From Candidatus Polarisedimenticolaceae bacterium (GTDB lineage: Bacteria > Acidobacteriota > Polarisedimenticolia > Polarisedimenticolales > DASRJG01), in assembly GCA_035649595.1 (NCBI GenBank), contig DASRJG010000082.1:10141-74140 (forward strand): DNA of 64,000 bases. Reading direction: 5' to 3'. Within the stretch, counting starts at the first letter, position 1. Every line of letters starts with the position of its first letter. Shown piece after piece: positions 4,674-6,265 of this stretch. A model generated the notes under the pieces. It was given only the letters and a program-made list of their open reading frames with translations. It was not told the DNA's origin and made no database searches. Both the position numbers and the translations under genes were made by a program.

Positions 4674-5097
<424 letters not shown>

Positions 5098-5145
5098 GCC
5101 CGTCTCCGCCGGACCTGGGTGGCCGGTTCCGGTGGAGTCGGATTT

Positions 5146-5345
5146 CCACGGTGGCCGCAAGCTTGTTGATGGTCGCGACCACCGGAATCCGGAAAAGCGT
5201 CGGGTCCTTATCGTTCGTGCCTCGCGCGGTGCAGGCGCCGAGCACGGCGGGAGCGACACCCGGCGCCAACGATGGATTGTTCACACCCGACGCTTTTCGA
5301 GCGCCGGAGCGCCCGGTTCCATCAACAAGCTTGCGGCCACCGTGG
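5146..5345. repeat. Perfect 27-bp inverted repeat enclosing a nested, rod-like 200-nt structure (candidate structured RNA or MITE-like element)
   Basis: 5146-5172 (ccacggtggccgcaagcttgttgatgg) is the exact reverse complement of 5319-5345. Inner complementary pairs are 5192-5205/5285-5298 (14 bp), 5210-5215/5268-5273, 5224-5231/5257-5266 and 5236-5240/5245-5249. Confidence 0.9.
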
Positions 5346-6265
5346 TGAGGGAGCTGCTGCGGCGAGGCGACCGCGTCGGGGTGGTCGCGCCGGGCTTCGC
5401 CCCCCAACCCGACGCGCTCGACGCCGGGCTCGCCGCCCTGAGGAAGCGGGGGTTTCAGGTCGAGGAGGGAACCCATCTCCGTGAGGTGGAGGGCTATCTC
5501 GCCGGGGACGATCGCGCTCGGGCGGCGGACCTGGACGCGGCGATCGCGAGCGAGAGCCTGAACGGGATCTGGTTCGCCCGCGGCGGCTACGGCACCGCGC
5601 GGCTCCTCGACCGGATCGATCTCCGGCGGCTCGCGCGGCGACCGAAGCTCCTGCTCGGCTACAGCGACGTGTCCGCGCTCGCCGCGGCGCTCCTCGCGCG
5701 CGCTCCCGCGCTGTGCCTCCATGCGCCGATGGTGACGGAGCTCTCGCGGCGGGAGGCGTTCCACGCCCCGTCGCTCGCCGCGATGCTCGCGGGGCGCACG
5801 GTCACGCGCAAGCTCGGCGCGCGGGACGTCCTGCGGAAGGGGCGGGCGCGCGGCCGCCTTATGGGCGGCAATCTCTGCGTGCTCACGCACCTCCTCGGAA
5901 CGCCGTTCATGCCGTCGCTCCGCGGCGCGGTCCTCTTCCTGGAGGATGCGGGGGAGGAGGCGTACCGCGTCGACCGCATGCTGCAGCACCTTCGGATGTC
6001 GGGCGCTCTTCGCGGCGTCGCGGCGGTTCTCGTCGGCCAGCTCCTCGTGCCGGAGACGCGCCGCGCCTACCCGGGAGACCGGGACGTCGCCGACGTGCTC
6101 CGAGAGCATCTCCTCCCGCTGGACGTCCCCGTCGTCACGGGGCTCCCCGTCGGGCACGGGGCGGGGAAGTGGACGATCCCGATCGGCGGGCGCGCGACCG
6201 TCGATACGTCGCGGCGGGCGATCGCCTTCGACCCCGTGCCTCAGCCCGTCCCCGCGCGGCGCTAG
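5342..6265 (+). CDS. ldcA: LD-carboxypeptidase (peptidase S66, muramoyltetrapeptide carboxypeptidase)
   Basis: GDRVGVVAPGF start, GYSDVSAL nucleophile motif, and PVVTGLPVGHG near the C-terminus. GTG start at 5342/5345 chosen; the ORF-track start at 5132 reads through the inverted repeat. Confidence 0.8.
   Translation: MVRELLRRGDRVGVVAPGFAPQPDALDAGLAALRKRGFQVEEGTHLREVEGYLAGDDRARAADLDAAIASESLNGIWFARGGYGTARLLDRIDLRRLARRPKLLLGYSDVSALAAALLARAPALCLHAPMVTELSRREAFHAPSLAAMLAGRTVTRKLGARDVLRKGRARGRLMGGNLCVLTHLLGTPFMPSLRGAVLFLEDAGEEAYRVDRMLQHLRMSGALRGVAAVLVGQLLVPETRRAYPGDRDVADVLREHLLPLDVPVVTGLPVGHGAGKWTIPIGGRATVDTSRRAIAFDPVPQPVPARR

Follow-up and report, generated by a model that had tools for sequence, protein, structure and literature searches.

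The genes for RNase P RNA (rnpB) and an LD-carboxypeptidase (ldcA) are neighbors in the window, the 64,000-nt (64-kb) stretch of DNA that was analysed here. They belong to a gene order comprising a histidine kinase, a SpoU methylase, rnpB, ldcA, truA, an epimerase gene, uppS, and cdsA, which is shared with the orthologous loci described below. The spacer between the two genes contains a conserved GC-rich hairpin followed by a 200-bp unit that is bounded by a perfect inverted repeat. The features of this region, given by their positions in the window, are the following.

4680-5095, plus strand: rnpB, RNase P RNA class A (RF00010, 281.9 bits), the upstream neighbor, outside the element
5103-5139, plus strand: conserved GC-rich hairpin in the rnpB-ldcA spacer (16 pairs in the consensus fold of 6 orthologous loci)
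5146-5345, no strand assigned: probable MITE unit of 200 bp, bounded by the perfect inverted repeat
5147-5344: the element proper, CACGG...CCGTG, 198 bp, delimited on the basis of family conservation
5146-5172, plus strand: left terminal inverted repeat, CCACGGTGGCCGCAAGCTTGTTGATGG, 27 nt
5147-5170, plus strand: family core of the left repeat, CACGGTGGCCGCAAGCTTGTTGA[T/C], the consensus of 146 instances
5190-5205, plus strand: inner inverted motif CGGAAAAGCGTCGGGT, left copy, which defines the MITE subfamily of the window
5285-5300, minus strand: inner inverted motif (ACCCGACGCTTTTCGA), right copy
5319-5345, minus strand: right terminal inverted repeat, 27 nt, with an in-frame GTG at 5342 inside it
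5345-6265, plus strand: ldcA, LD-carboxypeptidase (Peptidase_S66), the downstream neighbor, starting at GTG 5345 or GTG 5342

The original prediction described the outer arms of the unit (5146-5172 and 5319-5345) as exact reverse complements over 27 bp, and this proved to be the case. The arm 27-mer occurs in the 64-kb window at these two sites only, even with three mismatches allowed, and 100 shuffles yielded 0 matches to it. The inner architecture was also accurately described. It consists of a perfect 14-bp helix (5192-5205/5285-5298), a 6-bp helix (5210-5215/5268-5273), an 8-bp helix interrupted by a bulge of 2 nt, an internal loop (19 and 20 nt), and the apical hairpin CGCCG-AGCA-CGGCG, with its 5-bp stem and AGCA loop. 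The distance between the left arm and the 3' end of rnpB, previously given as 48 nt, needed correction to 50 nt, as rnpB ends at 5095. At the opposite side of the unit, the final base of the right arm coincides with the initial G of GTG 5345. The ldcA reading frame is intact and contains GTG codons at both 5342 and 5345, and an independent gene call for a 99%-identical protein (P0001, 307 aa, from a second assembly, L099) uses the start codon equivalent to 5342. The unit is short and devoid of a transposase gene; the one open reading frame that crosses it belongs to ldcA, as an upstream extension of that gene's frame. This extension is open across the whole MITE (5132-5344) to a GTG at 5132 and would add 70 codons, which is probably a mere consequence of GC-rich composition.

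Comparison with orthologous loci, chosen for LdcA proteins 73-83% identical to that of the window and for the same gene order, revealed that the unit is an addition to the spacer. The host's nearest relatives with a name are Candidatus Polarisedimenticolaceae. Five syntenic loci (L100, L106, L107, L101, and L103) are empty of the 200 bp and align on both flanks, the alignment extending up to ...GGA(T/C)TT and resuming at the start codon. The site is filled in the second assembly, L099, which carries an identical unit and is 99.94% identical to the window over 5,009 bp; three SNPs separate the two, with 0 in the unit. The empty sites in relatives, together with the identical copy in L099, indicate a lineage-specific insertion and not an assembly artefact or a conserved gene. 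In the relatives, the ldcA start codon (TTG, GTG, or ATG) lies from a few to ~30 nt past the conserved hairpin, the 3' half of which carries a GGAG sequence (5134-5137 in the window). The rnpB and ldcA genes are tightly packed in this clade and are possibly co-transcribed.

The exact insertion point became apparent when 5147-5344 was deleted in silico. This operation restored GGAG-TCGGATTTC-GTG, in which the spacing is 9 nt, and therefore places the element directly against the 5' side of the ldcA start codon. The earlier statement that the translation-initiation region of ldcA falls within the right arm was thus correct and can be sharpened, since the insertion immediately abuts the start codon. 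The ancestral GGAG has been displaced by the insertion to 198-200 nt from the ldcA start, so that, should transcription from rnpB read through the unit, expression of ldcA, including its translation, is probably altered. No purine-rich motif precedes GTG 5342/5345 in the right arm, and no consensus match to a sigma-70-like promoter, including one directed outward, was found in or around the unit. The neighboring truA and epimerase genes have no clear Shine-Dalgarno sequence. In a folded model of the region, taken as transcribed from rnpB, the conserved hairpin and the rod formed by the unit are both retained.

The arms of the unit are transposon ends. A scan of a genome collection with a 21-mer from the arm identified a second Acidobacteriota MAG (L002), in which the window's 27-mer and a near-identical inverted copy bound a unit of 168 bp. 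The interior of this unit is unrelated to that of the window, and its gene context is different, with a short-chain dehydrogenase gene beginning ~15 nt downstream of it. The 21-mer included the GATGG end and was too specific, returning this one true copy and one chance match. The latter (L001 2163-2183, in an Acutalibacteraceae MAG, a Firmicute) was rejected, being situated inside coding sequence without an inverted partner; the coding motif at this site, ...GTVGRKLVDGE..., is one that we take to be from a beta-CASP/metallo-beta-lactamase RNase-like protein. A 20-mer from the arm was found in 96 contigs of soil, rhizosphere, and sediment metagenomes. When the arms were paired, 49 bounded elements were obtained, consisting of 31 short elements (168-439 bp) and 18 long elements (1,281-1,377 bp, most often 1,365-1,367 bp). 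Among the unpaired arms, 40/48 reach the end of their contig within 1.4 kb, the expected sign of a repeated element that breaks assemblies. DNA and protein searches of viral contigs and plasmid records returned no match.

Alignment of 146 instances of the ends defined a conserved 24-bp core, CACGGTGGCCGCAAGCTTGTTGA[T/C], preceded by a variable base that is mostly C or G. Two full-length copies (L020 and L090) end in 27-mers identical to those of the window. The dispersed copies that the original prediction named as the mark of a mobile repeat exist for the arms, which occur in differing contexts in the 96 contigs and in one MAG. They do not exist for the 200-bp unit as a whole, which is present as one copy in the 64-kb window and has its only near-identical counterpart at the same locus in L099. 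The interiors of the short elements form at least 14 subfamilies that have the ends alone in common. The MITE subfamily of the window also includes the elements of L022, L098, L049, and L011, which share a second inverted motif, CGGAAAAGCGTYGGGT, and in these four the pair of inner motifs bounds a constant module of ~111 bp, measured end to end. An origin of the MITE by internal deletion of a full-length element is not supported, as no similarity was found between the interiors.

Two further elements of the family deserve mention. A 439-bp element, found at L006 3574-4012 and L047 12278-12716, carries a third, internal terminal repeat and is either two abutting MITEs or a MITE and a solo end. 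A full-length element in another Ca. Polarisedimenticolaceae MAG (GCA_036376135.1; L105 2875-4215) has GGCCTCGAGCTTGTTGA instead of GGCCGCAAGCTTGTTGA at both of its ends, which have evolved together within one element lineage.

Target-site duplications were sought in 45 non-redundant copies, with the boundary of the element allowed to shift. Directly outside CACGG...CCGTG, 9-bp duplications were perfect in 5/45 copies and matched at 8/9 positions in 2/45 and at 7/9 positions in 4/45, relative to a chance expectation of ~0.4 copies at ≥7/9, as estimated from shuffled flank pairs. These duplications were seen in both short and long elements. A 7-bp duplication adjoining 27-bp ends had also been considered and was replaced by 9 bp, with ends starting from CACGG, once the boundary was shifted. 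The outermost base of the 9-bp duplication, just outside CACGG, is C or G in 91% of 146 instances (L002-L098), a bias that points to S-N7-S as the preferred target. IS1 has a similar target preference.

The copy in the window was earlier remarked to have no target-site duplication, and this remark was correct. The family as a whole makes 9-bp duplications; the flanks of the window copy, TCGGATTTC and GTGAGGGAG, match at 1/9 positions, and no duplication of 3 to 10 bp appeared when the boundaries were shifted. Among the copies of the family in metagenome contigs, approximately three in four are likewise without a duplication. Insertion into a break, later loss, or, for the other copies, chimeric metagenome assembly are possible reasons for the missing duplications. 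The direct repeats of MITEs are known to fade with time (PMC10969869). Nevertheless, the perfect terminal and inner repeats of the window copy look young despite the missing duplication.

The long elements of the family (L054:949-2157, L079:843-2078, L090:699-2064, and others) each contain one open reading frame of ~379 aa. The protein family to which this product belongs is large; clustering at 90% identity yields at least 2,345 groups, and at 50% identity at least 1,361 representative clusters (E up to 0.001). Most of its members are unnamed in their sources, the others being called "hypothetical protein" or "transposase-like protein," with one distant member named "IS1 family transposase." The family as a whole has no Pfam domain and scores under every NCBIfam cut-off, and the window-type transposase (P0131) gives neither a Pfam nor an NCBIfam match. 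The 379-aa protein exhibits a conserved Cys/His zinc ribbon and a helix-turn-helix, and residues D139, D222, R279, and R287 are invariant in members down to 24% identity. AlphaFold modeling with a shallow alignment gave a pLDDT of 52.7, while a deeper alignment raised this value to 89.8 (pTM 0.90). In the resulting confident model, a sheet of three strands carries D139 on its first strand, and D222 comes immediately after a fourth strand, a predicted placement that would be compatible with an RNase H-like core. A PDB sequence search with both profiles returned zinc-finger noise only. A tblastn search of the 64-kb window with the family transposase found no homolog. A cluster of GTCCG/CGGAC(A/G) repeats, some of them palindromic, is situated 35-95 nt inside the end that lies upstream of the open reading frame (e.g., L090 2035-1975, minus strand) and may serve as promoter or operator, or as an additional binding site.

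The relationship of the long elements to IS1 was assessed by profile comparison and from the ends. Of 53 aligned members of the protein family, 43 match the IS1 family model NF033558, all below its cut-off and the best at 44.6 bits vs. 100, while the window-type subfamily (P0131) gave no match to this model. The HTH_Tnp_IS1 model was matched by 2 members, and the Pfam IS1 DDE domain (DDE_Tnp_IS1) by none in the family. Comparison with E. coli IS1A InsAB' using hhalign gave a probability of 93.5% (E 2e-7, 188 columns); the IS1A sequence used was checked and is 100% identical to database records. This signal derives mainly from the zinc-finger/helix-turn-helix region. The catalytic half alone gave a probability of 1.7%, which is not significant; the close subfamily alone gave 7.8%. 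The ends, GGTG..GC.GC.A.CTT..TGAT, resemble the terminal repeats of IS1A (shuffle p ~0.006-0.015).

The elements thus resemble IS1 in the N-terminal zinc finger and helix-turn-helix of the partner protein, which putatively bind the ends, and in a 9-bp duplication that falls within the 8-9 bp made by IS1 (PMC12428005). They differ from IS1 in their length of ~1,366 bp vs. 768 bp, in the possession of a single uninterrupted 379-aa open reading frame in place of insA/insB with its -1 frameshift, and in four extra outer bases (CACG...) beyond the IS1-like part of the ends. Because all curated thresholds were missed, the profile signal is mainly N-terminal, and the length and single open reading frame are atypical, the elements are best described as IS1-like and not as members of the IS1 family. 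They may constitute an undescribed and widespread sister group of IS1, for which there is no Pfam model.

With a probability of roughly 0.9, the 200-bp unit is a non-autonomous MITE of this IS1-like Acidobacteriota insertion sequence (~1,366 bp, 379-aa putative transposase). A MITE had been offered as the alternative to a structured RNA in the original prediction. That alternative has been borne out by ends that are common to dispersed elements and to a 1.37-kb insertion sequence and by the empty orthologous sites. The features that identify it are perfect 27-bp terminal inverted repeats with a 24-bp family core, ends held in common with 18 elements of 1.28-1.38 kb that encode the 379-aa protein, and presence/absence polymorphism at the insertion site (five empty loci, L099 filled). 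As the shared ends suggest, the putative transposase would be supplied in trans by a full-length copy elsewhere in the genome. It would bind both terminal repeats and move the unit, normally leaving a 9-bp duplication. In the lineage of the window, the unit entered the short spacer past the conserved hairpin and came to lie directly against the ldcA start. If the unit were read through from rnpB, its 27-bp perfect duplex should be a good substrate for RNase III and would be cleaved, by analogy with the Correia elements of Neisseria, in which RNase III cuts at the terminal repeats (PMC10969869).

The unit has several properties in common with the Correia elements and with QMITE2 of Coxiella. 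All are ~100-400 bp in length and non-coding, with terminal repeats of ~25 bp; they are intergenic and located near gene starts, are predicted to yield long-hairpin transcripts, and have ends like those of an insertion sequence (PMC10969869). Unlike Correia and QMITE2, the elements described here belong to another sequence family, are GC-rich (65-67%) rather than AT-rich, and comprise at least 14 subfamilies with only their ends in common; in addition, the window copy is without a target duplication.

A MITE at this position could have acquired a function, and two versions of this idea were considered. In the first, which is improbable, the element has been co-opted as a 3' extension of rnpB, with its stem serving as the RNase III site that separates RNase P RNA from the ldcA message and with its compact rod bringing back the ancestral GGAG-N9-start geometry across the 198 nt, so that the ribosome-binding site is split. 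Selection for such a stem and split ribosome-binding site would account for pairing that is complete down to the terminal base pair. In the second, judged quite improbable, rnpB and the element are co-transcribed, the outer stem serves for processing by RNase III or for termination, and the rod returns the GGAG to the ldcA start; this return of the GGAG is speculation. Such exaptation would fit an insertion with the GGAG-N9 spacer precisely on one side and the start codon on the other, a stem without a single mismatch, an ldcA open reading frame that is still intact, and the documented cutting of Correia terminal repeats by RNase III (PMC10969869). However, perfect arms are frequent in the family, e.g., in L081 and L073, and the insertion is restricted to one lineage. 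Furthermore, since truA and the epimerase gene have no clear Shine-Dalgarno sequence, the dependence of ldcA on the GGAG is doubtful.

A dedicated structured noncoding RNA gene between rnpB and ldcA, whether 6S-like or novel, was the leading suggestion of the original prediction and is now very unlikely. The unit is intergenic and adjoins another RNA gene, and its rod-like fold is highly stable on both strands, with MFE values of -120.5 kcal/mol on the plus strand (z = -7.65) and -126.7 kcal/mol on the minus strand (z = -9.57), both relative to dinucleotide shuffles. Folding of the 200-bp unit as DNA gave a similarly extreme z of -9.37 by the same measure. Like 6S RNA (RF00013), it forms an extended and irregular hairpin, ~200 nt in length, that is interrupted by an internal loop. 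Unlike 6S RNA, the unit has no covariance-model match and is not conserved at the orthologous locus, and its loop consists of facing non-homologous subterminal transposon segments. The Rfam model RF00013 gave no match on either strand, whether the gathering threshold or a permissive limit of E up to 10 was applied. At the gathering thresholds of Rfam 15, rnpB and one tRNA were the only matches in the 64-kb window. A permissive scan of 5050-5450 returned one match, to a plant miRNA-precursor family, at 38 bits vs. a gathering score of 268; this match is generic, because the same score was obtained on both strands, as any long hairpin would give. Rfam searches of 12 other loci with such elements found no match. 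The spacers of the five orthologous loci are without the unit, no promoter-like site was found, and the arms are transposon ends that surround unrelated interiors elsewhere.

Other short members of the family fold at -0.45 to -0.63 kcal/mol per nt, and the window unit at -0.60. Because these members fold about equally well, the rod is a generic property and provides no evidence of a dedicated RNA. It is a by-product of the layout of the element, in which the terminal repeats enclose a subfamily-specific inner inverted motif, and the large internal loop is formed where two non-homologous subterminal transposon segments face each other. Within the subfamily of the window, changes in the inner motif look compensatory (TCGGGT/ACCCGA vs. 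TTGGGT/ACCCAA). Such changes cannot distinguish an RNA from a transposon, since both ends of a transposon must keep the same protein-binding sequence.

An inverton, in which a recombinase flips the 146-bp segment between the repeats to control ldcA, would account for perfect inverted repeats around ~150 bp directly upstream of a gene and for the recurrence of the same repeats ahead of a different gene in a second genome (L002), but is extremely unlikely, as the repeats also bound 1.3-kb elements with a transposase-like protein and 9-bp duplications, no recombinase is found among the called neighbors (histidine kinase, SpoU methylase, LdcA, TruA, epimerase, UppS, and CdsA), the segment has no promoter-like hexamers, and its orientation is identical in both assemblies.

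Identification of the unit as a probable MITE removes a spurious entry from the candidate structured RNAs and exposes a general trap, in which a MITE in a GC-rich genome mimics both the folding z-score and the apparent compensatory changes of a real RNA. The locus is also a clean natural example in which a hairpin of 198 nt separates a Shine-Dalgarno-like motif from a start codon. The element is ordinary in kind and new as a member, and the transposon family from which it derives is abundant in Acidobacteriota of soil, rhizosphere, and sediment and is apparently unannotated. A protein model for the 379-aa family would improve annotation and would explain many contig breaks.
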